DNA of 64,000 nucleotides from a bacterium (GCA_963623195.1 CAVFKA010000010.1:64398-128397); one strand, 5' to 3'; numbered from the stretch's first letter, positions 10,137 through 58,883 are shown. The notes: generated from the sequence alone by a model not told the origin. A program made the numbers and translations.

Positions 10137-10166
10137 GCCTAAAATAATTGAAACGAGGTAAAAAAT

Positions 10167-10535
10167 ATGGCAACAAAAAAAGTTGAAACCAAGAAAACAA
10201 CAGCCACAAAACCAGCTGTTGCTAAAAAAGAGGCCGTAAAGAAGACCGAAACAAAGAAAGCCGAGCCAAAGAAGGCTACAGCCGCAAAGGAAACGACTGA
10301 AAAGAAAAACACTGGCGTTAAAGTCTATCACGTTTCCAAACGTGCTTCCGACAACAAATGGCAAGTCTTCATCAAAGGCAGCGATAAAGTCATTAAACTC
10401 TTCGACACAAAGGTTCAAGCCGAAGAATATTGCACAAAGATGGCTATCAACCAAGGCGCTACCTTACAAGTCCATAAATCTAAGGGTGCTAATAAGGGCA
10501 AAATCTCTAAAGCCATCGTTAAAGGCAAAAAATAA
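10167..10535 (+). CDS. DUF2188-like small protein with a histone-H1-like K/A/T-rich N-terminal tail
   Basis: The first ~50 aa are KKxxTKK repeats. The C-terminus YHVSKRASDNKWQVFIKGSDKVIKLFDTKVQAEEYCTKMA fits the DUF2188 pattern. Confidence 0.55.
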   Translation: MATKKVETKKTTATKPAVAKKEAVKKTETKKAEPKKATAAKETTEKKNTGVKVYHVSKRASDNKWQVFIKGSDKVIKLFDTKVQAEEYCTKMAINQGATLQVHKSKGANKGKISKAIVKGKK

Positions 10536-18934: not shown

Positions 18935-20200
18935 TTAAAAGATTTTTTGTACAAAATTATATAAGGCAAGATTCCAAGAAGAGAATGAATGTTTTTTGAA
19001 TGGGAATACATCAAAAGACGTATTCTTTCCTAAAATTAATCTATCTTCGATTTTCAAGAGGTTTCGATAATCGATTATTTGTTGGTGAAGGGAGAAATCA
19101 AACGTACCTGAAGTCATATAAAGATAGTTGATCGGAAACGATTTGAATTTCTCGCTTTGAAGGTGCTCTTGAAAATACTCTATACTCGTTCTCATGCCGG
19201 AAAATAACCCGAAGTAGCTAAAATAATCTAATGCCCCGCAAAGAATCGATCTAGATGTGGTAACGGCTCCTCTAGAAAGTCCAGCGAATGCACGATGGTT
19301 TCTAGAAGAAAGGAAACCTTCCCCATCTAATGATGTGGCATATGTGGAATATTTATCCTCAACTACGGGCATGATGTCGTTTAATAATTCGTCTTTGAAA
19401 TGATATGTGTATTGGTCTAAATCATTCGCCGAATCATTCTCGGTGTAGAAGGTAGGGGTCACGATAATTAAAGGCTCAATGATATTGTTACCTATCATAT
19501 AATCGAGCATTTTTTTGTTTTTGCTGTTTTTAATTAACCAGGATTCCGCATCATCTCCTGTGCCATGTAGCAAATACAAAATATTGTATTGCTTGTTTTC
19601 ATCATAATTATATGGAGTGTATACATATAGTTTTTTACTAACGTCGCGATTATCTGTCGTGTAAGCTTTGCTAGAATATTCAATTTCGTCTATTTTTCCT
19701 TCTTTTTCGCAGTCTTGATAAACAAAAGAAGGGACGCTATAAATGGAATTCTCAATTGTGGATTTGTTTGTATCTGTAATGTAAGCGGATAATGGGTAAA
19801 TCACAAGCGAAAGAAGCAATATAGATGTCAACGCCACATCAAGTGGGTACTTTTTTATTATTAGATGTTTCTCAAAGACAATTAAAGTCATGATTCCAAC
19901 GATGAAAGCGATAGTTGAGAGTATTGCGTTAATCAAAAAGTCAAAATTGTAGAGACTAGTTTCCAAATAATTTGTATTGAAGAATAAGATAAAGCAAAGC
20001 GCTGCATTGATTGAAAGTAAAAAATACCAATGATGGCGAAATGAAATAAAAGCCAATCCGCCCATGAATAAGTTAAGCAAGAGGATGACCCCAAAGGAGA
20101 CCCATTCGAATTGAACGAAATATTTACCTATTGAAAAAAGACACATCGCCATGATGGCAAAGCAAAGGATGTTCATCGTGTGTTTTTTAAATAAGTTCAT
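18935..20200 (-). CDS. Polytopic membrane domain fused to an esterase (putative-esterase/feruloyl-esterase-like alpha/beta hydrolase)
   Basis: C-half has YNILYLLHGTGDDAESW and FAGLSRGA (G-x-S-x-G). N-half has about 5 TM helices. The start is at M29 behind GGAGAGAA. Confidence 0.7.
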   Translation of the reverse strand: MNLFKKHTMNILCFAIMAMCLFSIGKYFVQFEWVSFGVILLLNLFMGGLAFISFRHHWYFLLSINAALCFILFFNTNYLETSLYNFDFLINAILSTIAFIVGIMTLIVFEKHLIIKKYPLDVALTSILLLSLVIYPLSAYITDTNKSTIENSIYSVPSFVYQDCEKEGKIDEIEYSSKAYTTDNRDVSKKLYVYTPYNYDENKQYNILYLLHGTGDDAESWLIKNSKNKKMLDYMIGNNIIEPLIIVTPTFYTENDSANDLDQYTYHFKDELLNDIMPVVEDKYSTYATSLDGEGFLSSRNHRAFAGLSRGAVTTSRSILCGALDYFSYFGLFSGMRTSIEYFQEHLQSEKFKSFPINYLYMTSGTFDFSLHQQIIDYRNLLKIEDRLILGKNTSFDVFPFKKHSFSSWNLALYNFVQKIF

Positions 20201-20259
20201 AATTCTCTCCTTTTTAGATAAAGGGCAAAGGCTTTCTTGTGACCTTTGCCCTCTGTGTT

Positions 20260-20640
20260 TTATTCTTTTTCGTGTTTTGCACAAACGCTAATGGCTGTGC
20301 AAATTAGAGCCAAGAAAGATAAGACCATAGCGAAGATGAAGAGGAAGGAAATCCCATCCATATCGTTTTTAGCCATTATATCGGCAAGGTTATTCAACAG
20401 TCTAAAGAAGAAGAACCCGAAGGCTAATGCCGAAGTGATAAATGGAACGTAAGAAGTGAACTTAATGTTCTTGACACAAATCAATAGAGCCAATACAGCT
20501 GTAATGATCGTGAAGATAAGAGGTAAGGAGTAGTTGTTTTCAACGCAAACCCCATAGCAGATCGCGCTTATTGCGGATAAGATTACTGCGAGAGCACTTG
20601 CGTAGAAGCCCAAGCCCTTATTACTTAAGAAGTTTTTCAT
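20260..20640 (-). CDS. Small 4-TM membrane protein coupled to GH3 (cassette 1)
   Basis: It starts 2 nt after the GH3 stop and has four hydrophobic helices. It occupies the same position as 58377-58721 in cassette 2. Confidence 0.6.
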   Translation of the reverse strand: MKNFLSNKGLGFYASALAVILSAISAICYGVCVENNYSLPLIFTIITAVLALLICVKNIKFTSYVPFITSALAFGFFFFRLLNNLADIMAKNDMDGISFLFIFAMVLSFLALICTAISVCAKHEKE

Positions 20641-23570: not shown

Positions 23571-23604
23571 ATTTGGCAAAATTAAAGCCGTTTTTGGCAA
23601 AATT
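23571..23604 (-). promoter_or_regulatory. Two perfect 13-bp direct repeats (TTTGGCAAAATTA) with 21-bp phasing; candidate LytTR operator for the GH3 arm of cassette 1
   Basis: The repeats lie at 23571-23583 and 23592-23604, between the kinase stop (23608) and the GH3 start (23516). A TGtTAAATT extended -10-like element lies downstream on the minus strand. Confidence 0.55.
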
Positions 23605-23607
23605 ACC

Positions 23608-24876
23608 TTATTGAAGAGGGAAAATTATATTTAATTTGAATAGTTTATCTTCGATTGCAATATTCATATTGCCTTCATATTTGTTAACGGTATACCTAAT
23701 AGATTTAAGACCAAAACCATGCATATTTTGATCTGACTTGGTTGTTTTTGGAAGACCGTCAACGAGTGAATATTCTCCATCAAAATAGTTTTCAATGTGC
23801 AAGCAAATGATTCCGCCTTTTTTGAATAATTTCAATGATATATAACGGAGAGAGGGGTCTTCGATTTTCTTTTCGTATTCAATGGCATTGTCTAATGCGT
23901 TTCCAATAATCGAGGTGATGTCACCTGGAGATAAGAAAGAAAGCAATGAGCCATCCGCTATTATCGTGAATTCAATTTTCTCTTTAATGCAAAGGTAACG
24001 TTTTTCGGTAAGGATGATATCCAAGGCGGAGTTGCCGGTGATGACTTGGGTGTCATACTCGTTAACTACGTCAATGACTTCATTTATGAACTTATCGTTT
24101 TGTCCCTGCTTCATCATCAAAACTTGATTTTTAAGATCATGAGCTTTGTAATTGATGACTTCCATGTTCTTTTTGGAACTTTCAAATTGAAGGGCTTGCA
24201 ATCTGCTATATTCCTCGAGTGTTTTGTTTTCTTCTTTTTCTTTCGAATAATAGAGAAAATAATATAAGGACGTTAACCCATATAAAGAACATATGGCCAA
24301 AGGCATATGAACAATCCAATATCCATTTAGATCGAATTGCAAAAGCATGAAATGCATGAAATAGATGAAAACTGCGGTTATTATGGCAAAAAGGAACATA
24401 AAACCCGTTTTGATTGTTGTAACATTTTTCCCTGAGTCGATTTTTCTAGCAAAGAAAAAGTAACAAATTCCGTATATGATGACGTTTGTCGTTACTGATA
24501 AAACAAACCATAACGCATCGGTGAAGAAATCAGGAAACGCCCAATAGAAGATCGATTCGATGTTGTATGAAAGATTTTGAGTGAATTGCGCTGAGACACC
24601 AATAAAAAGCAAAGAGGACAAATCAACCTCAAATAAGAAAAAGAAGTAGCCTAAAGTCAAAAGAAAAATGATGAAGGAGAAAAAACCTGGAGTGAAATAT
24701 GCGATAATATTCGGGATGCAAATGACAGAAAGAGCATACACTAAAGTCCCAGGAATTATACGAATTAGGAAATGATTCCTTCTTTTTGCCTTATATCCAT
24801 ATATAAGAATGGCTAACAACAATTGGATGATGTAGCCATGATTAACGCCTATCGAAAAAACATCTGATACAGTCAT
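23608..24876 (-). CDS. AgrC/HPK10-like sensor histidine kinase (GHKL, polytopic sensor domain)
   Basis: About 6-7 TM helices, H-box YKAHDLKNQ, N-box IGNALDNAIEY and G-box HGFGLKSI. ATGA overlap with the upstream regulator. Confidence 0.8.
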   Translation of the reverse strand: MTVSDVFSIGVNHGYIIQLLLAILIYGYKAKRRNHFLIRIIPGTLVYALSVICIPNIIAYFTPGFFSFIIFLLTLGYFFFLFEVDLSSLLFIGVSAQFTQNLSYNIESIFYWAFPDFFTDALWFVLSVTTNVIIYGICYFFFARKIDSGKNVTTIKTGFMFLFAIITAVFIYFMHFMLLQFDLNGYWIVHMPLAICSLYGLTSLYYFLYYSKEKEENKTLEEYSRLQALQFESSKKNMEVINYKAHDLKNQVLMMKQGQNDKFINEVIDVVNEYDTQVITGNSALDIILTEKRYLCIKEKIEFTIIADGSLLSFLSPGDITSIIGNALDNAIEYEKKIEDPSLRYISLKLFKKGGIICLHIENYFDGEYSLVDGLPKTTKSDQNMHGFGLKSIRYTVNKYEGNMNIAIEDKLFKLNIIFPLQ

Positions 24877-25586
24877 TGTTTTTCCTCAGCTAAAAAGCTT
24901 GTTAGTTTTTGCATGAATTCTTTTTTGTAGATATCACTAAGAGGTAGGCGTTCTCCTTGGACAGATATTTCATTTGCCTTAAAAGATTCGACGAATGATA
25001 GATTGATCAATATGGATCTTGTTGAAAAGGCAAACGATTTGCCATTAAAAGAAGACGATATGTTTTGCATCTTGTTCCTCTCCCTTAATGTTTTGCCATT
25101 CGAGAGATGATAAAGAAGATAATGCTTTTCGGTTTCAATGAAGACAATTTCACTTAAATGAGCCACGTATGATTCATCTTGACCATTGATGACATATGTG
25201 GAATCATCCTCGTTTTCGAAACGCTCAACGATCCTATCTAATTTTATTTTGAAGGTGTTGTAGTTAATTGGCTTAAGAATGAAATCCAAGGCATTGACCT
25301 CATAACCCTTGATTGCGTATTGGGAAAGGTTCGTTAAAAAGACAAGAGTTAATTTCGAATCGATCTTTCTTAGTTCGGAAGCTACTTGCATGCCACTCAT
25401 TTTAGGCATATCGATATCCATAAAAACCAAATTAAATTGATTGGCGTAATTATTTAAAAAAGCGACTCCATCCTTATAATGAGTTACTTCAAAATTGATG
25501 TTTTTTTCTTTTCCGTATTCTTGGATATATTTAACCGTTTCGTCGGCAAAATGTTGATCATCTTCAACTAAAGCAATCTTTAACAT
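24873..25586 (-). CDS. LytTR-family response regulator
   Basis: Receiver domain (LVFMDIDMP, ILKP) plus a C-terminal LytTR domain (IVFIETEKHYLLYHL...SILINLSFV). Confidence 0.85.
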   Translation of the reverse strand: MLKIALVEDDQHFADETVKYIQEYGKEKNINFEVTHYKDGVAFLNNYANQFNLVFMDIDMPKMSGMQVASELRKIDSKLTLVFLTNLSQYAIKGYEVNALDFILKPINYNTFKIKLDRIVERFENEDDSTYVINGQDESYVAHLSEIVFIETEKHYLLYHLSNGKTLRERNKMQNISSSFNGKSFAFSTRSILINLSFVESFKANEISVQGERLPLSDIYKKEFMQKLTSFLAEEKQ

Positions 25587-25774: not shown

Positions 25775-25803
25775 ATAAAAAACAGCCGACTCATCATCGA
25801 CTG
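25775..25803 (-). terminator. Rho-independent terminator of tRNA-Glu
   Basis: On the minus strand CAGTCGA-tgatgag-TCGGCTG plus T6. Confidence 0.65.
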
Positions 25804-25815
25804 TATGCGGCTAAT

Positions 25816-25891
25816 TGGTGACCCAGCCGGGAATCGAACCCGGGATTCAACCTTGAGAGGGTTGCGTCTTGAACCGCTTGACCACAGGGCC
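25816..25891 (-). tRNA. tRNA-Glu (anticodon CTC)
   Basis: The reverse complement is GGCCCTGTGGTCAAGCGGTTCAAGACGCAACCCTCTCAAGGTTGAATCCCGGGTTCGATTCCCGGCTGGGTCACCA. It has the G2-U71 pair typical of tRNA-Glu and a U6-U67 mismatch. Confidence 0.8.
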
Positions 25892-44929: not shown

Positions 44930-46441
44930 CTATTTCTTTTGGCTTTTATTTTCTTCTTCAGCAAGAATCTTTTGCTCATATGCTTCTTGCTTTGCCGCAT
45001 GTTCTTCTGACAAACGTTTCTTTGTCTCATCCCATTCTTTTCCACGTAATGGGAAGAAATACATAGCAACAAATGAAAGAAGTAACAATATGCCAGTAAT
45101 CAAGAACCAGCAAATGAATAAACCTTCTTTTGCACTTGCAGCTTGGTTTGCATAGTCGATAACCTCAACCGTTTTGCCAGTTATATCATCAACGGCAGAC
45201 ATTTTGAGATCTTTGTTGAAACCAAAAAGCGCAATCATGACAGGGAATAAAGCGGTCGCAATTGAGCCAGCAGGCTTAGTGATGAGAGAATTGATGCCCG
45301 CATAGACTCCTTCGCGTCTAGTTCCGTTATCAACCTCATCTTTATCGATGACGTCCCCGTTGATCATCGGGATGAGATAGATTCCACCTGCTAGACCAAC
45401 CCCACAACAAAGGAAGGTGAAAATAAGCGCATAGAAATATTTCCCAAGGAAAGCACCTAATATGCAGCCAACCCCCATCACGGCAGTCATGATAAGCATT
45501 TCATTACGAAGACCGAGTTTTGGACGCGTGAAATGGAATATGGCAATGCCAATAATCAACCCTAGAGCCAAAGCACCATAAAGAATGATAATAGAAGTGC
45601 CACCCATCCAACCGTTTCCACTTCCATCTATCGCCCACATGCCAGAGACATATGTTAAGCCAACCATCAATGCGTTTTGGGCAAAGATGATCGTCCAGGA
45701 AATCACTTCGAAAAGAAGGAAGGACTTGTTCTTAAGACAAAGTTTCAACCCTTCAAAGAATTTAGGTTGTTTTTCTTCAACAACATAGCCGTTCTCTTTG
45801 TAAAAGAAGGTCGACACAAATGTGATTGCCCCACATAAAAGGCCCATTCCAGCCATAACTAGAGGGAAGATGTTGGAATGATACTCAATAAGCTTGTCTA
45901 GTTGGGAATTAAGAACCATTGGGGCGCCAAAGTTAACAAGTGAGAAGATGATATTAAATAAGAATATCTTGTTTCTTGCTTTGTTGGTGACAGCCATCTC
46001 ATAAGGCATGACGTATATTGCCGATGCGATTGCGGTATAGAGGATATCAAAGAGGAATAATCCTAATAACTCTTGGACAAATAGCCATCCTTGTGAAACT
46101 CCTCCACCTTGAAGGGAAGGTAACCACATCAAAGCATAAATTACCGCCATAATTGGTGCGCCATACCTAATCCAAGGGATACGTCTTCCAAGTTTTGAGT
46201 GGGTCCTATCAGCAAGGAAGCCATAAATTGGGTCATTAATGGCATTCCATATGCCAAAGATGATCCAGACGATCATATTAAGGGTCTCGTCGAGTCCTAA
46301 TTTGTTGACAAAAAGATATTGGAAAGCCGCTCCCTCAGCAAAAGCGCAAAGTAGCCCCGTTCCAGCATTTGCCGCTCCAAGCCATACGGCCGAGGAAGTC
46401 TTTACTTTCTCTTCTCTTTTTGGCAATGTTTGTTGTTCCAT
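44930..46441 (-). CDS. MFS transporter, glycoside-pentoside-hexuronide (GPH) cation symporter type
   Basis: INDPIYGFLADRTHSKLGRRIPW signature, 12 TM helices and a charged C-terminal tail. The start is taken after the upstream gene's TGA (AAGGAGAAATGAATATG). Confidence 0.8.
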   Translation of the reverse strand: MEQQTLPKREEKVKTSSAVWLGAANAGTGLLCAFAEGAAFQYLFVNKLGLDETLNMIVWIIFGIWNAINDPIYGFLADRTHSKLGRRIPWIRYGAPIMAVIYALMWLPSLQGGGVSQGWLFVQELLGLFLFDILYTAIASAIYVMPYEMAVTNKARNKIFLFNIIFSLVNFGAPMVLNSQLDKLIEYHSNIFPLVMAGMGLLCGAITFVSTFFYKENGYVVEEKQPKFFEGLKLCLKNKSFLLFEVISWTIIFAQNALMVGLTYVSGMWAIDGSGNGWMGGTSIIILYGALALGLIIGIAIFHFTRPKLGLRNEMLIMTAVMGVGCILGAFLGKYFYALIFTFLCCGVGLAGGIYLIPMINGDVIDKDEVDNGTRREGVYAGINSLITKPAGSIATALFPVMIALFGFNKDLKMSAVDDITGKTVEVIDYANQAASAKEGLFICWFLITGILLLLSFVAMYFFPLRGKEWDETKKRLSEEHAAKQEAYEQKILAEEENKSQKK

Positions 46442-46443
46442 AT

Positions 46444-47364
46444 TCATTTCTCCTTTCTTATATGATCAACAAAATCATTTACAATTTTTTGATATCTATC
46501 AGAATCTGTTTGAAAACTTAGGGCATGTTCCGCATTAGGAAAGGTCTCTCTCCTTGAGTGAGAAGAAGTTGCTTCATATATATCTAAAGAATGTTCTAAT
46601 GGGATGTATGTATCAGATTCGCCATGGATTATAAGCAATGGGACGTTGCTATTTGATACGGCTTTAAGAGGGATGACCTCCTTATAAGAATAATGGTAGA
46701 GAAGTTTTAAGAAAATATCCGCCCCAAAAAGGAAGAAAGAGGGAATGTGCATGTTTTTCATTAGATGTTTCAAAAGTTTTTCTAAGGATGAAAAACCGCA
46801 ATCTTCAATCGCGAAATCAACATCGCTTGTCTCCTTTAACGCCATCATTACGCATGAGGCGCCTAAACTTTCACCATGTATGCCAATTAACGCATCTTTC
46901 CCTAGTTTCTTTCGGAAATATTCAACTATTGTAGCAATGTCTTTTCCCTCTTTATACCCCATTGTCGTGTATTTGCTTGCACTTTCCCCATGCCCTCTTA
47001 CATCAAATAGATACACGGAAAAGCCAAGTTTGTAGAACATGAGAGCATATTTGACATTCCCTTCCCTAGTCCAGGTGTAGCCATGTGAGGTAATAATCAA
47101 TCCTCTAGGATTTGGGTGAGGGGAATAATCTCCATGGATTAGAAGACCATCAAATGAAGGAATATTCAATTCTTCCCTCTTTAATTCAGGCGTATTTGGA
47201 GGAATTAGCCCTTTCTCTATGTCCACTTGCTTGCAGAATTCCGCACTATAACGTTTAGGGAGAGAAAGATATCTAGCAAGAAAGAAACCGATGACAAAGT
47301 AAAGAATTGTCAAAAAGGCGAAAAAAGATAATGAAATTATGGTAATTAGCAGAGGTAATGACAT
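46444..47364 (-). CDS. Membrane-anchored alpha/beta hydrolase
   Basis: N-terminal TM helix, HGYTW, nucleophile elbow HGESLGA and IIHGESDTYIP. Confidence 0.8.
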   Translation of the reverse strand: MSLPLLITIISLSFFAFLTILYFVIGFFLARYLSLPKRYSAEFCKQVDIEKGLIPPNTPELKREELNIPSFDGLLIHGDYSPHPNPRGLIITSHGYTWTREGNVKYALMFYKLGFSVYLFDVRGHGESASKYTTMGYKEGKDIATIVEYFRKKLGKDALIGIHGESLGASCVMMALKETSDVDFAIEDCGFSSLEKLLKHLMKNMHIPSFFLFGADIFLKLLYHYSYKEVIPLKAVSNSNVPLLIIHGESDTYIPLEHSLDIYEATSSHSRRETFPNAEHALSFQTDSDRYQKIVNDFVDHIRKEK

Positions 47365-49076: not shown

Positions 49077-50933
49077 ATGGAATCAAAAGAAATTCTCTAT
49101 AAGCCAAAAGAGCTTTACGAAAGACAATTGAAAGATCAATATCACAAAGGCGCGGAAGAATATTTCGATAAATTGGCAAAAGAAGCCAACACGGATATTC
49201 AAACAAACGCGACGCACGTGAAAGAATATAAGAGCTTGCTTGCAAAGCAAAAAGAAGCAGAGGACAAACTAGGTTCCTCAAAAGGACTTAGAGGCTTCTT
49301 CATTTTCTTGATTGTCGTCACTTTCTTAGCTGCGCTCATTTGCGGAATCGTTGGAGCTATGAACATCTCAAATATGTGGTGGATGTTACTTATTGCTGCA
49401 GCAATGCTTGGATTAGGGATATATCTCATCGTTCATATCACGACCAAAGTCAATAAAGCTATCGCCCAAAGACAAGAAGCAGTTAACAAGTTAAAAGCCG
49501 AAGTTGACGCAAAACTTCAAGAATGCTATGCCGACATGGCTACACTAAATTCATCATTTGATTGGTCTTTGCCTTCAAAAATCATGGAAGACGTCACCAA
49601 CATCATCGATCTTGACCCATATTTTTCCACCCCAAAACTGTATTATCTTCATGATAAATTCGGCTTTGCCACAGAAGACGAGGAAAACGAATCAGTTTTA
49701 GGGATTCTTTCAGGAAACATTCAAGGGAACCCATTTATCTTAAAGAAAACATTGTCGGAACATTATTGCGACAAGACATATACAGGTTCTTTAGTCATTA
49801 CCTGGACGACATATTCAAGAGATTCTAAAGGCAACACGGTTGCTCATCACCATTCGGAAACTTTACACGCCTCAGTTGATCATAAGGCCCCTTTGTATTC
49901 AAAAGGCACAATGCTCGTTTATGGAAATGAGGCAGCCCCTCACCTTCATTTCAGCCGTTCCTCATCTAGCATCAATACATTAGATGCAAAAGGAAGAGAA
50001 AAAGAAGTGAAGAACAAAATGAAGGATATTAGAAAGAAAGCTGACAACGCCATTATAAACGGTTCGACCTTCACTCAAATGGATAATGATGAGTTCGAAG
50101 TATTTTTCGGAGGAACCGACAGAGACAACGAAGTTGAATTCCGTCTCTTATTCACCCCACTTGCCCAAACAAACATGATGGCCTTGCTTTCAGACCCTAA
50201 CCCATATGGCGATGATTTCTATATGAAAAAGGATGGCATGTGTAACTACGTCGTATCTAGACATTCTCAATCCTTCGATTATTCTTCAGACCCAAGCATA
50301 TATACCTCATATGATTACACTGTTTCAAAGAACACGTTCGTTTCATATTGCGACGAATTTATCAAACATCTCTTCTTTGATTTAGCCCCATTACTCTCCA
50401 TCCCTCTATATCAGATGCATAAGCCTAGAGAATATATCTATGAGAAAGATGTCGAATCCAATTATTCATTCTATGAACATGAGGCGATGGCAAACTCCAT
50501 GGATCAATCCCTCTTTATGCCTGAGGGCGCAGATGACTCCTTACCAGTCATGATTAGAGAGACTTCCTCAAGGAAAAACGGCAAGGTCGATATCATCAAT
50601 GTTCATACCTATTCCTATGAAACAACCCCTATGACAGATTATGTCCCTGTCCATGGTGGAGATGGTTGTTGGCATGATGTCCCAGTCCATTGGATCAAAT
50701 ATGACAGAGTGGATGACGATAAGTCTTTCTCTCTTGCATATACTGGCTCTTCAAGAAAGAATTTCAACGACAAGATGAAAGAAAACAGCAAGCTTTCAGG
50801 ACTCGTTAATTCTTCTAAAGCCGCATTCTTCGGACGTGGAATGTTATCGGCGATGTTTGATGAAGAAACGCGTAACGACATCAATGAAATCCTTGATGAG
50901 GTTTTCGAAGAAAAAAATGATGCAAGCAAATAA
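49077..50933 (+). CDS. 618-aa protein of unknown function (coiled-coil N-terminus, two TM helices, large C-terminal domain)
   Basis: Long uninterrupted ORF with a TM pair (FFIFLIVVTFLAALICGIVGA / WWMLLIAAAMLGLGIYLIVHI). No motif recognised. Confidence 0.6.
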   Translation: MESKEILYKPKELYERQLKDQYHKGAEEYFDKLAKEANTDIQTNATHVKEYKSLLAKQKEAEDKLGSSKGLRGFFIFLIVVTFLAALICGIVGAMNISNMWWMLLIAAAMLGLGIYLIVHITTKVNKAIAQRQEAVNKLKAEVDAKLQECYADMATLNSSFDWSLPSKIMEDVTNIIDLDPYFSTPKLYYLHDKFGFATEDEENESVLGILSGNIQGNPFILKKTLSEHYCDKTYTGSLVITWTTYSRDSKGNTVAHHHSETLHASVDHKAPLYSKGTMLVYGNEAAPHLHFSRSSSSINTLDAKGREKEVKNKMKDIRKKADNAIINGSTFTQMDNDEFEVFFGGTDRDNEVEFRLLFTPLAQTNMMALLSDPNPYGDDFYMKKDGMCNYVVSRHSQSFDYSSDPSIYTSYDYTVSKNTFVSYCDEFIKHLFFDLAPLLSIPLYQMHKPREYIYEKDVESNYSFYEHEAMANSMDQSLFMPEGADDSLPVMIRETSSRKNGKVDIINVHTYSYETTPMTDYVPVHGGDGCWHDVPVHWIKYDRVDDDKSFSLAYTGSSRKNFNDKMKENSKLSGLVNSSKAAFFGRGMLSAMFDEETRNDINEILDEVFEEKNDASK

Positions 50934-50979
50934 TTAATGCATATAATATAGGCAGCTTATTTAGAAAGGAAAAATAAAT

Positions 50980-51648
50980 ATGGCACAATTAGATGAAACA
51001 GATGTTAGCTTAGAAAACACCGCTGGCAGAGATGTCCACGTCATTGACAAGAAAGTTCCTGTCGAACTCAATGGCACAGATAAATTTGTTAACGTTGGCG
51101 TTTGGTTCTTATTCATTATCGGAGGTGTTGTTTACACCGTTAAGAAGAATCATGCAAGAAGCTATTTCAAACAACTCGAGCAAAAGATTCAACACGATGC
51201 ATCCACAATCGATAACTACATGGCACAACGTGTTTCCATCCTTCAAAACACAGCAAAACTCCTTGATAAGGCAATCGCTTTAGACAAAGAGACGTTTGTC
51301 GAAGTTGCAAAAGCCCGCTCAGGCGCTTCTAGTGATGCCGATGTCGCTCGTAATGAACTCCAAGGCAAACTTGATATGGCTCAAAATTCCATCAATGTCG
51401 CTTTAGAGAAATACCCAGACCTCAAAGCTCACCAAGAAATCCAAGACGCATTGCAACAAAACTCCTATCTCCAACAAGAAATCACAGCTGCTAGAGAAGT
51501 CTATAACAATGCTGTCGCAAAATGGAATACTGAGATCTTCTCCCTTTGGGCAAAGAAATATGTCGCAGCTCAAGAAGGCTACACAACCCGTATCCCATTC
51601 ATTGCTTCAAAAGAAATCAAAGAAAAAGCAGAAGGCGTATTCTTCTGA
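50980..51648 (+). CDS. lemA: LemA-family protein (with an N-terminal extension)
   Basis: EKYPDLKAHQEIQDALQQ...AAREVYNNAVAKWNTEIFSLWAKKY matches the LemA C-terminal signature. One TM helix. Confidence 0.8.
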   Translation: MAQLDETDVSLENTAGRDVHVIDKKVPVELNGTDKFVNVGVWFLFIIGGVVYTVKKNHARSYFKQLEQKIQHDASTIDNYMAQRVSILQNTAKLLDKAIALDKETFVEVAKARSGASSDADVARNELQGKLDMAQNSINVALEKYPDLKAHQEIQDALQQNSYLQQEITAAREVYNNAVAKWNTEIFSLWAKKYVAAQEGYTTRIPFIASKEIKEKAEGVFF

Positions 51649-52243: not shown

Positions 52244-52278
52244 AAAGATCCTTAGAGCGAAATCTAAGGATTTTTCTT
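52244..52278 (+). terminator. Rho-independent terminator
   Basis: GATCCTTAG-agcgaaat-CTAAGGATT plus T-run. Confidence 0.75.
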
Positions 52279-52399
52279 TGAATTTATTGATTTGCAATAT
52301 ATTAAGGACGTAAGTTTTAAAAAACCGAAAACTTAAATGCATACCCACGCAATGAAAACTATTGCGATAAAAAAATAGAAACATATAAAATATTAGCAA

Positions 52400-53125
52400 A
52401 TGATAAAAGTTGCGATTGTTGAAGATTCAAAACAAGATTTAAACGATTTATTATCCTGTCTTACCCAATATGAGAAAGAACATTCAGAGGAATTTCAAAT
52501 CGATTCATTTTCCAATGGTTTAGATTTCATTGAGAAATACAATGAAGGATACGACCTGGTTTTCATGGATGTTAATATGCCTTATGAAAACGGTATTAGC
52601 ATTTCTAAACGCTTACGCCTTATTGATAAAGATGTTCCTATTGTTTTCGTAACTCAAATGGCTCAATATGCCATCTCAGCCTTCGATGTAAGTGCTAAGG
52701 ATTACCTTCTTAAACCAATCATATATTCATCTTTTGCTTTTCGCTTTTCCAAAATTCTCGATGGAATAAAAATCAATTCAGGGAATGATGGCGTTTCTTT
52801 TCTAGTTAAAACATCGGATGCACACATTAAAATAAACTCAAACGATATAACTTACGTTGAAGTCGTAAGGCATACTCTTATTTTCCATACGTTGGATGGA
52901 GAATTTGAAACAGGCGGTTCATTGAAAAATATAGAAGCTAAGCTATCTGGTCAAGGAAAGACGTTTGCTAAATGCAACAATTGTTACCTCATTAATCTTA
53001 GATATATTGAAAAAATAGAGAGCGAAACGCTTTATCTTAAAGGGGCGGCATTAAAAATTAGTCGTTCACGCAAAAAAGAATTCATGGATCGCGTTTGTCT
53101 CTATTATGCAGAAGGTGGACATTAA
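52400..53125 (+). CDS. LytTR-family response regulator (cassette 2)
   Basis: Receiver (LVFMDVNMP, LLKP) plus LytTR domain (ITYVEVVRHTLIFHT...CYLINLRYI). Confidence 0.85.
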   Translation: MIKVAIVEDSKQDLNDLLSCLTQYEKEHSEEFQIDSFSNGLDFIEKYNEGYDLVFMDVNMPYENGISISKRLRLIDKDVPIVFVTQMAQYAISAFDVSAKDYLLKPIIYSSFAFRFSKILDGIKINSGNDGVSFLVKTSDAHIKINSNDITYVEVVRHTLIFHTLDGEFETGGSLKNIEAKLSGQGKTFAKCNNCYLINLRYIEKIESETLYLKGAALKISRSRKKEFMDRVCLYYAEGGH

Positions 53126-54435
53126 TGGAATTCCTTAACGCCATTTTTGTTACGCTTCAACAATATCAATTTCGCTTGTTTTGGCCTGAACTTTTATTCA
53201 TGATTCATTTGCCAAAACGCTCATTTTACTGGCTAAGATCGCTGGTTTGGATTCCTTTTTTAATCGTTCCATTTTTCTTTAGTACCTTTTTTACTAGTCC
53301 CTTTTTCAAATTGGGTTTTTATAATTGGAGCTTTTTGCTTTGGTTCGTCTATTCCATTTTTGCTGTCTGCTTTTGCCATAAGACAAATGTTTCAAATTTT
53401 ATTTTTGCTTTGGCCTCTGCCTATACCATTCAGAATTTATTTGTCGACTTCAAATTCTTTATTTACTATATGCTTAGCCCCGATGAAACTCTTTTGTATA
53501 ACATCTTGACGTTCTTGCTAATGGTTGGCATATATGCAATTACATATTTCCTTTTTACGAAACCATGGTCGAAAAAAATCAATGAAGGTTTGAAAATCAA
53601 CCATATATCCTTGGTTGTCATCTCTATTTTTATCCTTCTTTTCCTCAATGTTCTAAGTTCCGTTCTCGTTAATATTACCGATAACACAAAAACACTCGCG
53701 ATAATTTGCCTTCTTTTCTCTATTTGTTCTCTTTTTGTCTTGATGCTTCTTTCTACCGCTTATGACAAATCATATTTTCAATACGAAACCGAAAGCGTTA
53801 AAAAAATGCTGGATGAGTTCGAAAGACAAAGAAAAATATCCGAGCAAACAATCGATATCATTAACATGAAATGCCATGACATGAAACATCAACTTATGGC
53901 TTTAAGAAGTTCAAAAGAAAACATCGATGACGATTTTTATAAAAAAGCAGTAGACTCCATCGCCATATATGATTCTTTCTTTAAGACGGGAAATGAATCC
54001 CTTGATTTGGTTCTTACGGAGAAAAGCCTTCTTTGCAACAAAGAAAACATAAGACTTACGTGTGTTGCGGACGGTGAGGCGATTTCTTTCATGAAGCCAA
54101 GTGATGTTTACTCTTTCTTTGGAAATGCAATAGATAACGCTATGGAATGCCTCGTCAAATATGATAAAAGCAAAAGAGATCTAAGCATAATTGTTAGAAA
54201 AACAAATACAGGTTTTGTTAGCATTACGATTGAAAACTATTGCCAAGAGGATGCCAAGTTTGTAAATGGATTGCCAAAAACCACAAAAAACAATGTCTCA
54301 TTTCATGGCTTTGGAACTAAGAGCATGAAATACATAATCGAAGATATATATCACGGAACTATCTTGATGGAGCGTAAGAAAGATGCATTTTGTGTCTCCG
54401 TGTTGATCCAAATCGATCAAGAAAAGACCAAATGA
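53125..54435 (+). CDS. AgrC/HPK10-like sensor histidine kinase (cassette 2)
   Basis: About 6 TM helices, H-box MKCHDMKHQ, N-box FGNAIDNAMEC and G-box HGFGTKSM. TAATG coupling to the regulator. Confidence 0.8.
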   Translation: MEFLNAIFVTLQQYQFRLFWPELLFMIHLPKRSFYWLRSLVWIPFLIVPFFFSTFFTSPFFKLGFYNWSFLLWFVYSIFAVCFCHKTNVSNFIFALASAYTIQNLFVDFKFFIYYMLSPDETLLYNILTFLLMVGIYAITYFLFTKPWSKKINEGLKINHISLVVISIFILLFLNVLSSVLVNITDNTKTLAIICLLFSICSLFVLMLLSTAYDKSYFQYETESVKKMLDEFERQRKISEQTIDIINMKCHDMKHQLMALRSSKENIDDDFYKKAVDSIAIYDSFFKTGNESLDLVLTEKSLLCNKENIRLTCVADGEAISFMKPSDVYSFFGNAIDNAMECLVKYDKSKRDLSIIVRKTNTGFVSITIENYCQEDAKFVNGLPKTTKNNVSFHGFGTKSMKYIIEDIYHGTILMERKKDAFCVSVLIQIDQEKTK

Positions 54436-54479
54436 ATTCTTTTGAAACGTTAAATTGAAAGCGCTTTATACGCAAACCG

Positions 54480-54528
54480 TGCAAGAAAAACGACAACTTA
54501 TGCAAGAGCAAGAGCAAGTTATGCAGGA
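54480..54528 (+). promoter_or_regulatory. Three TGCA(A/G)GA-centred direct repeats at exact 21-bp phasing; candidate LytTR operator for the cassette-2 glycosidase arm
   Basis: TGCAAGA at 54480, TGCAAGA at 54501 (within ACTTATGCAAGA) and TGCAGGA at 54522 (within AGTTATGCAGGA), about 80 nt upstream of the 54608 start. Confidence 0.5.
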
Positions 54529-54607
54529 ATGAATACTGAGTGTTTTGGGTTTGTTGCACCTTCATTTTTCCCTTTTTAAAATTCAATCAAATCTAAAAGG
54601 AGAAATT

Positions 54608-55585
54608 ATGACAAAACCAAAAAAGATTATTGTCGCTTTGATTCCTCTTGCGCTTTACGCCGTCGCTGGCGCAAGCTATGGCATTGTTACTGCTATCCAG
54701 AACAATGCTAGCAAGTCGAACACAGCAAAAAAGCAAAATGATACTGGCGATTATCAGTTTGCTTTCTCTGGGACGGTTGAAACTGTCACAGGAAGAACCT
54801 TCACCCTTGATCTTAACGGAAACAAAGATGAAGAGAAAACTCTTACTTTAGCAGTAGAGGAAATGCCAGCCCTTTCAATTGGCGGAAATTGGGAATACGT
54901 CGAAAACAAAGGCTACAAAATTTTCCTCAACGACGCTAATGGCACATTCGCTTACACAAGGTATCACACAGATAGCAAAACATTTACTGTCATGTTTGAT
55001 TACGACATGGGCAATTTTGGCCAACCAAAAGTCAATCTCACATATAAAGATGAGGATTTTGCAACTAAATACGATGGAATCGGTTTAGGGAAAAAACCTC
55101 CGTCATTTAGTCTTACAGGCTATACAACCTTTAACCATTATGGTTATGGCTCCCTTCTTTTTAAGGAAGATGGAAGCGTTGTTGCAAACCTTACTAACAC
55201 CGGCGCTGGTTGGTATTTCAATAGAAGTGGTAAATGGGAATTTAATGAAGAAACCCAAGAATACGATTATTGGTTCACCGATCAAACGATATCCCTCACT
55301 GACGGAAATTTAAACATCCGTGGTGAAGATGGAGCTCATTACGTATGGTGGACAAAATTCACGAAAGATAGCGAAACTCCTGAGTTCCGTATTCAACTTG
55401 ATTATGATGAATTCGTAAATAAGTATCATCTTTTCACAGGTGAAGAATACAAATATCATACGGAATTCATTGAAGCGGAAAGCAAATATTATGCAACCGT
55501 GGACGCACAATATAACTGGGGTCTTAACACTGGAGATATCGTCGAATTCTCCGGATATGCATCCTTAGCTGATATGGAGGGTTAA
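54608..55585 (+). CDS. Signal-anchored, aromatic-rich extracytoplasmic protein of unknown function (possible glycan-binding partner of GH3)
   Basis: Strong AAAGGAG RBS and an N-terminal TM/signal (IIVALIPLALYAVAGASYG). The Y/W/F/N/G/T-rich body suggests a beta-rich fold. It ends 5 nt before GH3. Confidence 0.6.
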   Translation: MTKPKKIIVALIPLALYAVAGASYGIVTAIQNNASKSNTAKKQNDTGDYQFAFSGTVETVTGRTFTLDLNGNKDEEKTLTLAVEEMPALSIGGNWEYVENKGYKIFLNDANGTFAYTRYHTDSKTFTVMFDYDMGNFGQPKVNLTYKDEDFATKYDGIGLGKKPPSFSLTGYTTFNHYGYGSLLFKEDGSVVANLTNTGAGWYFNRSGKWEFNEETQEYDYWFTDQTISLTDGNLNIRGEDGAHYVWWTKFTKDSETPEFRIQLDYDEFVNKYHLFTGEEYKYHTEFIEAESKYYATVDAQYNWGLNTGDIVEFSGYASLADMEG

Positions 55586-55590
55586 TCAAA

Positions 55591-58380
55591 ATGAGTAAAA
55601 AACCAAGAATAGAACTGTTTATTCTTAAATGCTTAGGTGCCACCTATATATTGTCTGCTCTTATCGCAGGTAATGTGGCCGCCAATCAATATTCTTCATT
55701 GGTAACTAAGTTTTTCCATCAACAAGAAACAAAGATCATCAATAATGACGATGGTGGAAAAAAGAACACAGAAGATTACAAACTTGACTACAATTCAGTA
55801 GAAGAATTAGAAAAAGATGAGAGAGCTTACGCGGAAGAAGTCCAATCTGAAGGCGTTATTCTTCTTCAAAATAAGAATCTTCCTCTTCAAGGTTGCAAGA
55901 CGACCCTTCTAGGCTTATATAGCCGTGATGACAAACTCTCTGGTGGCGTTTCCGTTTCTAGCAACGCACCAAAGATGGCAGACAAATTCAAAGAAGCAGG
56001 TTTCGACATCAATCAAACAATGGTCGATTATTATAAGACTCTTGATGCTGAAACGGATCCAGCCGAATTCTCTAGCAAGGCGATTTCATCAATACAAAAT
56101 TACAATGATCTTGCCGTTGTCGTCCTCTTTAGCGGCGGTGCAGAAGGCGTAGATATCACAGCAAACGACCTTCGTTTCTCTGATACAGAAAAAACTTTAA
56201 TCTCATACGCTTCAAAGAATTTCAAGAATGTTGTCGTTCTTCTAAACACATCAAATACCGTTGAACTTGGATACTTGGAACAATTCAACAATCTTTCAAC
56301 CTTGTATATCAACTTTGCTGGCGATGCCGGAATTGGTTCTGTTCCAAAAATCATCAACGGAACAATCAATCCTTCTGGAAAAACGGCAGACACCTTTGCC
56401 TACAACGTCGAATCGCCGATCTCAATGCTTAACTATGAAAATAGTTCTTCCGATCAAGCCATAATTGGAGGAGATGGTAAAAAGGCAGGTAACTACGTCA
56501 ATTATATCGAGGGCATCTATGTTGGCTATAGATATTTCGAAACAAGATACGAAGATGTGGTCTTAGGAAATGCCAATACTGGTTCGTTTGACTATAAGAG
56601 CCTTGTTCAATATCCGTTTGGCTATGGGCTCTCCTATACGACATTCGACTATTCTAATTTCGACTGCCAAGAGAGCGGATCTTCATTTAAACTCTCTGTC
56701 AAAGTAACGAATACTGGCAAAGTTGACGGAAAAGAAGCAGTTGGCTTCTATATGCAATCTCCATATACCGATTATGACAAAGAAAACGGCATCGAAAAAG
56801 CATCCGTCCAACTTGTGGAATTCGGAAAAACAAGCACTTTAAAAGCAGGCGAGAGCGAAACAATATCCGTTGAAGTCAGCAAAAAAGAAATGCGCGCTTA
56901 CGATGAAACAAAAGCGAAGACATATATCGTTGATGATGGAAAATATTACTTTACTGCCGCTAGCGATTCCCATAAGGCCATCAATAATATCCTTATGGCA
57001 AAAAACAATGAAGGCGATGTTAAGGTAAACGCAAGCTTGATGAGTGGGAATGGTGATGCCACACTTGTTGGAAGCTATAACCAAAAGACATTCGATAATA
57101 CAACCTACGCTATTGGAAAAGACGGCAAGACAATCACAAATCAGTTTGCCGATGTCAACATGAATTACTATTACGAAGGTTCAACAACCTACGTTTCTAG
57201 AAAAAATTGGGTTGGCACAATACCAGCCGAAAAAGCAGGAGACATCCAAGCAACCGATAAACTTCTTGCTGATTTCAACCCAACATATGACACCGATGGT
57301 CAAGAGGCCCCAACTTTAAACGAGAGCAACGGATTGTCCCTTGCTTCGATGATTGGCATTGACTATGACAATGAATATTGGGATAAACTTCTAAATCAAA
57401 TGTCCGCTGAAGAGCTTATGTCTTTGGTTGCCCATGGCGGTTTCCAAACCGAAGCGGTCTCCTCGATTAACAAGCCAGCATCAACAGATAAAGATGGTCC
57501 AGCGGGACTTGACGCCTCTCAACTTGGCGGCGATACTTGCTATACCTTCCCATCTGATAGCATGTTTGCTTGCACTTGGAACAAAGAACTCATCGGCAAA
57601 TATGGCTACTATATCTCACAAGATTGCCTTATCACAGGTACAACAGGCTGGTATGCACCAGCATGTAATATCCACAGAGTCGCAATTTGTGGCAGAACAA
57701 GAGAATATTTCTCTGAAGATCCATATCTTTCTGGTGCTATGTCTTATGTTATTTCCTCATCGGCTCAGAAAAATGGCGTTGTAACATACGTTAAGCACTT
57801 TGCCTTGAATGAGCAAGAGAACAATCGTTCAAACGTCTGCACTTTCTCTAACGAACAAGCAATCCGCGAAATTTACTTAAAGCCATTTGAAATGGCCGTC
57901 GCTGAAGGCGGATCGATGGGCGTCATGACCTCCATGAACAGAGTTGGAACGGTCTATTCTTCCTCCAAACGTTCTCTTTGCACTGATGTCTTGAAGAATG
58001 AATGGGGCTTTAAAGGCGTCGTCATTACAGATTTCGTCAGCGGTGCTTCAAGCAAAGTTGTCGCTCTTGAGATGATTATGGCTGGCACAGATCTCTTCCT
58101 TTGCACAGCAAGCGGAACAGGCCTTTATGTTGCTGATTACGCAACAAATAACGCTGTTCTCAATCAATTAAGAGATTCAGCACATAGAATTTGCTATGCA
58201 TATGCCAACTCTAACTTGATGAATGGTCTCTCTTCGAGTTCGATCATCGTTAAAGTCACACCGGCTTGGAAATATTTCATGATTGCCGCCGATGCCATCA
58301 TTGTCTATGCCCTTTATCTCTGGGTTTTATCCCCAATACTTTTCAAGAAAGATAAAAAAGAAGGAGAAAATGACAAATGA
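55591..58380 (+). CDS. Glycoside hydrolase family 3, domain-permuted, N-terminal signal/anchor plus C-terminal TM anchor (paralog of 20643-23516)
   Basis: Same domain order as cassette 1: LLQNKNLPLQ, FSGGAEGVD, INPSGKTADTFA; YPFGYGLSYTTF, VKVTNTGKVDGKEAVGFY; KHFALNEQENNR, SMNRVG, VVITDF. The terminal helix is followed by KKDKKEGENDK. Confidence 0.85.
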   Translation: MSKKPRIELFILKCLGATYILSALIAGNVAANQYSSLVTKFFHQQETKIINNDDGGKKNTEDYKLDYNSVEELEKDERAYAEEVQSEGVILLQNKNLPLQGCKTTLLGLYSRDDKLSGGVSVSSNAPKMADKFKEAGFDINQTMVDYYKTLDAETDPAEFSSKAISSIQNYNDLAVVVLFSGGAEGVDITANDLRFSDTEKTLISYASKNFKNVVVLLNTSNTVELGYLEQFNNLSTLYINFAGDAGIGSVPKIINGTINPSGKTADTFAYNVESPISMLNYENSSSDQAIIGGDGKKAGNYVNYIEGIYVGYRYFETRYEDVVLGNANTGSFDYKSLVQYPFGYGLSYTTFDYSNFDCQESGSSFKLSVKVTNTGKVDGKEAVGFYMQSPYTDYDKENGIEKASVQLVEFGKTSTLKAGESETISVEVSKKEMRAYDETKAKTYIVDDGKYYFTAASDSHKAINNILMAKNNEGDVKVNASLMSGNGDATLVGSYNQKTFDNTTYAIGKDGKTITNQFADVNMNYYYEGSTTYVSRKNWVGTIPAEKAGDIQATDKLLADFNPTYDTDGQEAPTLNESNGLSLASMIGIDYDNEYWDKLLNQMSAEELMSLVAHGGFQTEAVSSINKPASTDKDGPAGLDASQLGGDTCYTFPSDSMFACTWNKELIGKYGYYISQDCLITGTTGWYAPACNIHRVAICGRTREYFSEDPYLSGAMSYVISSSAQKNGVVTYVKHFALNEQENNRSNVCTFSNEQAIREIYLKPFEMAVAEGGSMGVMTSMNRVGTVYSSSKRSLCTDVLKNEWGFKGVVITDFVSGASSKVVALEMIMAGTDLFLCTASGTGLYVADYATNNAVLNQLRDSAHRICYAYANSNLMNGLSSSSIIVKVTPAWKYFMIAADAIIVYALYLWVLSPILFKKDKKEGENDK

Positions 58381-58721
58381 ACCTCAAAATTAATAACAAA
58401 TTAGACTATCTCAATCTTGGCTCAGTAATTGGCTCGTTGATTGGATTCGTTCTTGCTCTTGTTGGCTGCTTAGCCTTATCAAACAAGGTTGGCATTGGTG
58501 TAAACACATCTCTCTCCCCTGTTGTCTATGTTGGCATAGCTGTCCTCGTTGTTGGTCTCGCTTTATCGATTGCTGGCAACATCTACTATGAGAAGAAAGA
58601 TGACATGAATAGAATCTTCGCTAGCACAGCTCTATATGTTGCCGTGATAGCCTTGATGATTGTTGCAGTTGTTATCATTCTTACAATCCTCATGCCTGTT
58701 CTTCATCCAACAAACGGTTAA
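58377..58721 (+). CDS. Small polytopic membrane protein coupled to GH3 (cassette 2)
   Basis: ATGA overlap with the GH3 stop. Three to four TM helices. Confidence 0.6.
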   Translation: MNLKINNKLDYLNLGSVIGSLIGFVLALVGCLALSNKVGIGVNTSLSPVVYVGIAVLVVGLALSIAGNIYYEKKDDMNRIFASTALYVAVIALMIVAVVIILTILMPVLHPTNG

Positions 58722-58738
58722 AGAATTATCAAAAAAGA

Positions 58739-58770
58739 AGTCGGAATTGAAAAAAGTTCCGGCTTTTTTT
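58739..58770 (+). terminator. Rho-independent terminator
   Basis: AGTCGGAA-ttgaaaaaag-TTCCGGCT plus T7. Confidence 0.75.
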
Positions 58771-58883
58771 GATAAATGAATATCAAAAAAAACAACAACA
58801 TGGTTTAAATGAAGATGATTGCTCATTCTTAGAAAAACATTCAATTATCCTAACTATTGCAGGTTCTAAGAATGATGAAGAAA

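Follow-up and report, generated by a model that had tools for sequence, protein, structure and literature searches.

Introduction

Glycan sensing in Gram-positive gut and rumen bacteria is much less understood than in Bacteroidetes. In Butyrivibrio proteoclasticus B316, three LytTR regulators (PUL7, 21 and 33) are each found near a secreted glycoside hydrolase family 3 (GH3) enzyme with a C-terminal membrane helix (Kelly et al., 2010; PMC2914790), and a survey of Roseburia described an arabinoxylan locus that includes a LytTR regulator and a kinase (PMC5320581). The permuted GH3 topology was first described for the rumen enzyme GlyA1 (PMC5104943), and the characterised GH3 enzymes include a beta-glucuronidase that bears a signal peptide as well as a C-terminal membrane domain (bioRxiv 10.1101/2022.04.25.489410). 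Here, we analysed a 64-kb stretch of bacterial DNA (CAVFKA010000010.1:64398-128397; the whole stretch is called the window), which carries two diverged cassettes encoding a LytTR response regulator, an AgrC-like histidine kinase, a GH3 enzyme and a small membrane protein: cassette 2, at 52400-58721 on the plus strand, which is our main subject, and cassette 1, on the minus strand.

Taken as a whole, the locus is best explained as a two-component-controlled surface glycosidase module, a reading to which we give a probability of roughly 0.6. The link between LytTR regulators and anchored GH3 enzymes (2010) and the permuted GH3 subfamily are already known, and nothing in these descriptions is overturned by our data.

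Results

Organization of the two cassettes

The elements of cassette 2, checked by listing of open reading frames (ORFs) and by direct reading of the sequence, are given below.

52400-53125, plus strand: response regulator, 241 amino acids (aa), with REC (PF00072, 4.3e-17) and LytTR (PF04397, 2.2e-15) domains
53125-54435, plus strand: AgrC-like histidine kinase, 436 aa, with a GHKL ATPase domain (PF14501 HATPase_c_5, 1.7e-17)
54480-54528, plus strand: three direct repeats in 21-bp phase (TGCAAGA at 54480 and 54501, TGCAGGA at 54522), putative LytTR site
54554-54582, plus strand: candidate promoter of the GH3 operon, read by eye (TTGCAC, 17 nt, TAAAAT; weak -35)
54608-55585, plus strand: 325-aa accessory protein ("X"), with a predicted N-terminal membrane helix and all-beta ectodomain
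55591-58380, plus strand: permuted GH3 glycosidase, 929 aa, with an N-terminal signal peptide or anchor, a C-terminal membrane helix and a basic tail
58377-58721, plus strand: type A small membrane protein, 114 aa, with 3 predicted helices, a GIGxN loop and a C-terminal PxNG
58726-58775, plus strand: intrinsic terminator ending the operon (-21.9 kcal/mol, z = -6.9, U run after the hairpin)

Gene order, lengths, TAATG and ATGA overlaps and phased repeats were all present as the first-pass annotation of this DNA had reported them. The TAATG overlap couples regulator and kinase, the kinase ATG at 53125 using the A of the regulator TAA stop; the ATGA overlap lies between the GH3 stop and the 114-aa ORF; and a spacer of 172 nt separates the kinase gene from that of the 325-aa protein.

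Cassette 1 has corresponding regulator, kinase, GH3 and small membrane protein genes, with an additional gene at its 3' end.

24873-25586, minus strand: response regulator, 237 aa, with REC (PF00072, 3.4e-17) and LytTR (PF04397, 4.3e-9) domains
23608-24876, minus strand: AgrC-like histidine kinase, 422 aa (PF14501, 1.3e-26), in ATGA overlap with the regulator stop
23572-23605, minus strand: perfect 13-bp direct repeat TAATTTTGCCAAA, two copies 21 bp apart, between kinase and GH3; putative LytTR site
20643-23516, minus strand: GH3, 957 aa, permuted and doubly anchored like the cassette 2 enzyme
20260-20640, minus strand: type B small membrane protein, 126 aa, with 4 predicted helices and an N-terminal K..GFY
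20220-20254, minus strand: stable hairpin between the type B and esterase genes (-19.9 kcal/mol, z = -4.8, weak U tract), a possible terminator or attenuator
18935-20200, minus strand: membrane-anchored esterase, 421 aa (PF00756, 1.8e-9; partial match to a feruloyl-esterase model)

Esterase homologues were found directly 3' of the type B gene at loci L034 (11314-12609, Bifidobacterium asteroides), L083 (11471-12772) and L008 (4493-5440); therefore, cassette 1 is better seen as a five-gene unit reaching 18935. In both regulators the REC and LytTR domains score above the Pfam cut-offs, and the acidic pocket motif FMD(V/I) was seen. Both kinases combine PF14501 with 5-6 hydrophobic segments in the first ~215 residues and an H-box His; in cassette 2 the segments number about 5-6 and the ATPase domain follows them. 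The motifs read in the sequence were CHDMKH (H-box) and GNAIDNA (N-box) in the cassette 2 kinase, and AHDLKN (H-box) in that of cassette 1.

Divergence and origin of the cassettes

Comparison of the cassettes by BLASTP gave 38% identity over the full length for the GH3 pair (E = 0), 30% for the regulators (5e-46) and 31% for the kinases (2e-50). These values bear out the description of two diverged cassettes in one window, with GH3 proteins that align throughout and are nevertheless clearly different, and both GH3 peptides quoted in the annotation were found in the sequence and align with each other. The annotation had further counted four shared components, which holds for the regulator, kinase and GH3 but not for the small membrane proteins: these gave zero alignment at E <= 100 and represent two different families, types A and B, whose profile-profile comparison reached 27.9% probability across 28 columns, a level at which homology is not demonstrable. 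A match of the type B profile to one type A member (E = 0.003) was treated as compositional, and homology of the two types was rejected. Moreover, the 325-aa protein is encoded in cassette 2 only and the membrane-anchored esterase in cassette 1 only.

In neighbour-joining trees, built without bootstrap, the GH3, kinase and regulator of cassette 1 each cluster with the cassette of B. asteroides (L034), and those of cassette 2 each cluster with metagenome contig L001. Since each trio groups with the cassette of another organism, the two cassettes appear to be old module lineages and not products of a duplication within the present genome; the annotation had spoken of an old duplication. In the same unbootstrapped trees, GH3 enzymes bearing type A form one sub-clade and those bearing type B a separate deep clade.

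Conservation of the module in other genomes

A wider scan with one genome per species returned at least 80 further loci, on which the census below is based. They span Lachnospiraceae, Oscillospiraceae, Christensenellales, Bacilli, Bifidobacterium and Alloscardovia, as well as Streptococcus suis, Thermophilibacter, Demequina and Microbacterium. The proposal that the cassette is a functional unit with synteny beyond this genome found its counterpart in cassettes from many Bacillota and Actinomycetota, and is supported, the synteny extending far beyond the source genome.

Contig L001, a G+C-rich metagenome sequence with a GH3 67% identical to that of cassette 2, packs three cassettes into 21 kb, and each of them closes with a small ORF of 110-135 aa. 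Locus L004 encodes a regulator, a kinase, a 303-aa protein, a GH3 and a 111-aa protein, and L008 has two cassettes, one of them with regulator and kinase downstream of the GH3. The small ORF is absent from L009, which has a regulator, a kinase, a 246-aa protein and a GH3, and from Bifidobacterium dentium, where regulator and kinase are divergent from the GH3 and the locus lies among GH43, GH5 and GH30 genes.

The census sample comprised 69 doubly anchored GH3 proteins of at least 900 aa from the Bacillota and Actinomycetota loci listed, scored with a simple ORF caller, phmmer searches with the window LytTR and kinase C-terminal halves, and Kyte-Doolittle hydropathy. Linkage was scored where a LytTR regulator and a kinase both lie within 5 kb of the GH3, and a small ORF was counted if it has at least 3 hydrophobic segments and starts no more than 30 nt after the GH3 stop. 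By these definitions, 33/69 GH3 genes are linked to a two-component system and 36/69 are not; a qualifying small ORF follows 19/69, of which 18 are type A or B (about a quarter of the 69), and small ORF and two-component system occur together in 11/69.

At locus L091, genes for a phage-type integrase, a NikA-like protein and a relaxase (2-1192 and 9617-10302) flank a cassette with a fused GH3, a hint that mobile elements may carry the module.

The GH3 enzymes

Pfam domains of the 929-aa protein follow the order GH3_C (PF01915, 89-313), Fn3-like (PF14310, 397-460) and GH3_N (PF00933, 645-844), and in both window GH3s the order is (alpha/beta)6 sandwich, FnIII-like domain and (beta/alpha)8 barrel, with a collinear match to 5k6l. 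In HMMER alignments, E185 (GGAEGVD) corresponds to the SGEGYD motif of TnBgl3B, whose Glu we take to be the acid/base, and D814 (VITDF) to the Asp in the SDW of TnBgl3B (2x40; SAW, with Ala, in the mutant 2x42) and in the MTDW of GlyA1 (5k6l). The GlyA1 nucleophile, Asp-709 (PMC5104943), lies within the motif aligned to D814, and the cassette 1 enzyme carries AISDTD at this position. Across an alignment of 12 diverse relatives, D814 and E185 are invariant. Judged by sequence, both window enzymes belong to the permuted-domain, GlyA1-like GH3 subfamily, and exo-glycosidase activity is predicted for them. NCBIfam equivalogs (arabinopyranosidase, glucosidase and xylosidase) scored several-fold under their cut-offs, for example 255 against 1300 bits.

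Hydrophobic segments of the 929-aa GH3 lie at 7-31 and 894-919. In both window GH3s the N-terminus is hydrophobic, and a single hydrophobic helix at the C-terminal end precedes a Lys-rich tail; both are therefore predicted to be membrane-tethered ectoenzymes. Both also carry a W-x7-D motif (58267-58293 and 20730-20756) with the Asp at the outer end of the C-terminal helix, which occurs in 29/69 anchored GH3s: 17/33 with a nearby two-component system and 12/36 without. As a marker of kinase coupling this motif was set aside, the enrichment being weak.

A protein search returned ~7,700 relatives having the same three-domain pattern, and P0001 (NCBI) in the protein collection is 100% identical to the 929-aa GH3. 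The window DNA is low in G+C, and its nearest labelled relatives are metagenome-assembled genomes named 'Bacilli/Bacillales bacterium'.

Two families of small membrane proteins

Type A proteins are 107-116 aa long, with 3 predicted helices, a GxGxN...SP loop after helix 1 and, usually, a C-terminal P-x-N-G, whereas type B proteins have 125-160 aa, 4 predicted helices and an N-terminal K..G(F/Y)(Y/W) motif (K..GFY). Hidden Markov models (HMMs) made without the window sequences recovered the window members among 6,841 ORFs (type A, 2e-29; type B, 1.7e-18), and their significant matches (E < 1e-8) were solely GH3-adjacent ORFs, with no unrelated membrane proteins. Types A and B are therefore both real families, and the small ORFs, which the annotation had treated as genuine genes, proved to be conserved and translationally coupled to the GH3 gene, with type A sometimes fused to it. 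Type A is rare, with 19 representative clusters among 1.84 billion proteins. A single-sequence search with the window type B protein retrieved only itself, and for the 114-aa protein, Pfam at E <= 0.01 gave only a sub-threshold match to DUF998 (18.9 bits against a cut-off of 30). A distant type A member, P0167, is known from short contigs.

In the four diverged metagenomic proteins P0038, P0042, P0043 and P0046 (1057-1069 aa), and in fragment P0165, type A is fused in frame behind the GH3 membrane helix, and the window type A protein shares 40% identity over 95 aa (E = 1e-17) with the C-terminal extension of P0043. The fused gene of L091 stands in a cassette that is otherwise identical (regulator, kinase, 328-aa protein and GH3) and lacks a free-standing small ORF. 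For the fusion, the predicted topology is consistent with that of free type A: the GH3 helix runs from outside to inside, a cytoplasmic linker comes next, and helix 1 of the module runs from inside to outside. Both window small ORFs begin no more than 4 nt from the GH3 stop, and at L029 a type B gene precedes the GH3 gene and overlaps it by 11 nt.

Furthermore, the small proteins sort by type along the GH3 clades, and across the 69 GH3s a small protein occurs independently of a two-component system (odds ratio 1.75, p = 0.42). From this independence, together with the fusion, the overlap and the clade-following, the small protein seems to be tied to the enzyme anchor and not to the kinase.

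Other arrangements were also seen. At L057 (10754-12817), a 687-aa protein encoded right behind the GH3 begins with a type B module (E = 6e-10), followed by an extra hydrophobic stretch and an aromatic-rich ectodomain of ~500 residues. A different pairing joins non-anchored GH3s of ~805 aa to membrane proteins of 185-210 aa encoded after them (L036, L042, L047, L055, L062, L063 and L088); the latter were judged GtrA-like by eye from a motif and are unrelated to types A and B.

The 325-aa accessory protein

The 325-aa protein has one N-terminal membrane helix, 24 detected homologues and zero Pfam or NCBIfam matches. In the AlphaFold2 model (pLDDT 84.5, pTM 0.73), the N-terminal helix is followed by an all-beta ectodomain, and residues 46-160 modelled alone form eight strands. 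Foldseek comparison of the full model with the PDB gave no match at E <= 0.001, the best E being 0.009 and all TM-scores <=0.44; for residues 46-160, the best matches, which were non-significant, were small closed beta-barrels such as designed barrels, GID4, lipocalins and PliC. The model thus hints at a barrel resemblance at the level of the fold only, and we file the protein under no family.

The family adjoins only the GH3 clade nearest to the 929-aa enzyme, represented by the window, L001, L004, L008, L009 and L091. An iterated HMM of the 325-aa family, run across all loci, failed to pick up the further single-pass proteins that are encoded upstream of other GH3 clades.

Phased repeats upstream of the enzyme operon

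AgrA, ComE and PlnC/D bind paired repeats of ~21-bp periodicity, which is an established LytTR architecture. At the sequence level, such paired direct repeats of ~21 bp precede the putatively regulated operon in both cassettes. In cassette 2, the extended repeat TTATGCA[A/G]GA begins at 54498 and 54519, the last two copies, and the 13-bp repeat of cassette 1 has two exact copies in the 64-kb window, both in that cassette. L022, a relative of cassette 1, has AAATT[A/T]TTGCCA twice at 20-bp spacing.

When direct-repeat spacing was profiled in the 260 nt upstream of the enzyme operon at the 33 two-component loci, with at least 10/12 positions matching, a peak appeared at 21 bp (10/33 loci), while the spacings 12-26 and 28-40 bp were otherwise represented by 0-3 loci each. 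The 21-bp repeats upstream of GH3 operons fit candidate binding sites of the LytTR regulator.

Other features and neighbouring genes

Upstream of the cassette 2 regulator, a terminator-like hairpin (52244-52275) and a promoter-like site (52362-52391) were noted as consensus matches only. The consensus scan made no call at the candidate promoter 54554-54582, and the promoter and terminator scans as a whole gave counts not above those of shuffled sequences.

The region 5' of cassette 2 (49077-51648, plus strand) encodes a LemA-family protein of 222 aa and a 618-aa protein without a Pfam match. At L009 (13927-16497), a LemA gene and a 619-aa gene lie near the cassette, in an arrangement like that of the window pair. 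On the minus strand, at 44930-47364, an MFS_2 transporter of the glycoside-pentoside-hexuronide type is co-directional with an alpha/beta hydrolase (BD-FAE match); the two could serve as uptake and esterase partners for cassette products, but 5 kb separate them from the cassette.

Seven tRNA genes are found in the window, one of them (25819-25891, minus strand) directly upstream of cassette 1, with a terminator-like hairpin (25782-25804) after it. A search of the window with Rfam returned tRNAs only, so that no known riboswitch or leader appears to be involved.

Discussion

A surface glycosidase module under two-component control would work as follows. The polytopic AgrC-like kinase would phosphorylate the LytTR response regulator, which would then bind the 21-bp-phased repeats just upstream of the enzyme operon and activate it. 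The main product of the operon would be a permuted-domain GH3 exo-glycosidase, held at the outer face of the cytoplasmic membrane by its C-terminal helix, and the small polytopic membrane protein would be a physical partner of this anchor. To these, cassette 2 would add a membrane-anchored protein with a beta-barrel ectodomain, and cassette 1 a membrane-anchored esterase. In this scheme, the two cassettes would be anciently separated lineages, each with its own unrelated small partner (type A or type B). The outward-facing enzyme and the contact of the small protein with the GH3 anchor are features that we infer from sequence. The substrates are likely to be plant-derived glycosides or oligosaccharides, and those of cassette 1 are possibly esterified.

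Several points weigh against this reading. Regulator binding and operon activation are putative steps. A clear 21-bp repeat was present in only 10/33 loci, and a second, smaller spacing peak at 27 bp (6 loci) is unexplained. Because the NCBIfam matches fall far under the cut-offs, no substrate specificity can be assigned from sequence, and neither window cassette encodes a sugar transporter. The small protein is absent from many cassettes, among them those of L009, B. dentium, L011 and L016, and is therefore not essential to the module; moreover, type B is weakly conserved, with 29% mean column identity. The census counts are approximate, because ORFs and, by hydropathy, helices were called with crude methods and some contigs are cut off, and the trees are neighbour-joining trees without bootstrap support.

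Among the alternatives, the one with the most to commend it, though we consider it unlikely, is that the anchored GH3 and its small partner, joined in cassette 2 by the beta-barrel protein, act as a co-sensor, with the kinase reading substrate binding or turnover via helix-helix contacts in the membrane, in a manner reminiscent of flux sensing by BceAB-BceS or of the way SaeP/SaeQ control SaeS. A sizeable extracellular domain is missing from the kinase, which has only short loops between its hydrophobic segments, and its linkage with the regulator and an anchored GH3 is seen across phyla. The membrane helix of the GH3 is retained, with W-x7-D at the outer end in 29/69; the motifs conserved in type A are predicted to lie on the outer side; and the accessory genes lie inside an operon that would be under control of the regulator, so that a feedback could arise. 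However, the presence of the small protein shows no correlation with that of a two-component system (p = 0.42), W-x7-D is only weakly enriched alongside that system (17/33 vs 12/36), and 36/69 anchored GH3 genes lack such a system within 5 kb. If the co-sensor idea were true, the AgrC-like kinases of these loci would be sensors of glycans and not of peptides, with the enzyme as co-receptor, in a widespread form of carbohydrate sensing that crosses phyla of Gram-positive gut bacteria.

The remaining explanations are much weaker. Type A, with 3 helices and ~110 aa, has the size of a SemiSWEET, its gene stands directly behind that of an exo-glycosidase, and the cassette has no other transporter; hence the small proteins might be minimal sugar channels or transporter subunits for the monosaccharide released by the GH3, with a SemiSWEET-like dimer of the 3-helix form. 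We regard this as improbable: Pfam detected neither MtN3/SemiSWEET (PF03083) nor any other transporter family, giving sub-threshold noise only, type A lacks Trp and a PQ-type motif, fusion to an enzyme anchor would be unusual for a transporter, and type B is unrelated, with 4 helices. An Agr-type peptide quorum-sensing system, through which dense populations would switch on a shared extracellular enzyme, is suggested by the polytopic HATPase_c_5 kinase and the LytTR regulator, the classes found in the Agr, Com, Blp and Fsr systems, yet it appears about equally improbable. AgrB-like and peptide-exporter Pfam families were found neither in the cassettes nor in related loci, where short precursor ORFs were not systematically searched, the cassette 2 spacer between kinase and operon contains no ORF, and the constant partner across phyla is a glycosidase. 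The quorum-sensing explanation is rated low because the kinase loops are short and no genes for a peptide precursor, its processing or its export were seen. Finally, short hydrophobic ORFs are easily over-called, and the window type B protein found no homologue by single-sequence search, so the small ORFs could be chance occurrences and not genes. This is the least credible explanation and is effectively refuted by conservation, since HMMs free of window sequences recover both proteins (1.7e-18 and 2e-29) and no unrelated membrane proteins, type A forms 19 diverged clusters with constant length, conserved motifs and in-frame fusions, and both ORFs start no more than 4 nt from the GH3 stop.

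The module recurs, often in multiple copies per genome, in Lachnospiraceae, Oscillospiraceae, Bacilli, Bifidobacterium and other Actinomycetota. In it, a surface glycosidase is combined with a kinase of a class most familiar from peptide signalling. The parts now defined, namely two small-partner families, a beta-barrel protein, an esterase, likely operator repeats and a fusion, offer testable handles on an uncharacterised circuit, and would allow better annotation of many 'hypothetical' small membrane proteins.

Comparison with known systems

The AgrC/AgrA, ComDE, BlpRH, FsrCA and VirSR systems share with the window cassettes a polytopic HATPase_c_5 kinase, a REC-LytTR regulator and paired repeats of ~21 bp. 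In contrast to these Agr-type systems, no genes for a peptide precursor, its processing or its export were seen in the window cassettes, whose targets would be a glycosidase and its membrane partners. Another likeness is with SaeP/SaeQ-SaeS, BceAB-BceS and LiaF-LiaS, in which small membrane or anchored proteins are encoded with, and regulated by, a system whose kinase has no large sensing domain. SaeP/SaeQ, BceAB and LiaF are an analogy only, without sequence similarity, and the small protein described here tracks the enzyme and not the kinase.

In B. proteoclasticus B316, the same pairing of LytTR regulator and GH3 is present in several copies per genome, and its authors suggested a shared role in carbohydrate sensing (PMC2914790). 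That paper, to which we liken our locus by description, gives a one-sentence genome observation, and does not include binding sites, a small partner, a beta-barrel protein, a fusion or spread across phyla (PMC2914790). Likewise, our literature search brought up no earlier account of the two families of small partner, of the fusion, of the 325-aa family, of the link to the esterase, of the putative operator repeats or of the spread across phyla.

Among characterised enzymes, the GH3 beta-glucuronidase is predicted to be surface-bound through its C-terminal membrane domain, like the window GH3s, a likeness drawn by description, and shows that such enzymes can have unexpected specificities (bioRxiv 10.1101/2022.04.25.489410). 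The terms 'two-component', 'histidine kinase' and 'operon' do not occur in the main text of that paper (bioRxiv 10.1101/2022.04.25.489410). GlyA1 (5k6l, PMC5104943) and BrGH3A (PMC11233000), whose subfamily occurs in gut and rumen microbes, have the same domain order and aligned nucleophile as the window GH3s. GlyA1 differs in having another C-terminal domain, of ~120 residues, and its paper makes no mention of a signal peptide or transmembrane segment (PMC5104943). In brief, GlyA1 and the window GH3 are moderately similar (217 bits), whereas the double anchor and the two-component link are features of the window enzymes.

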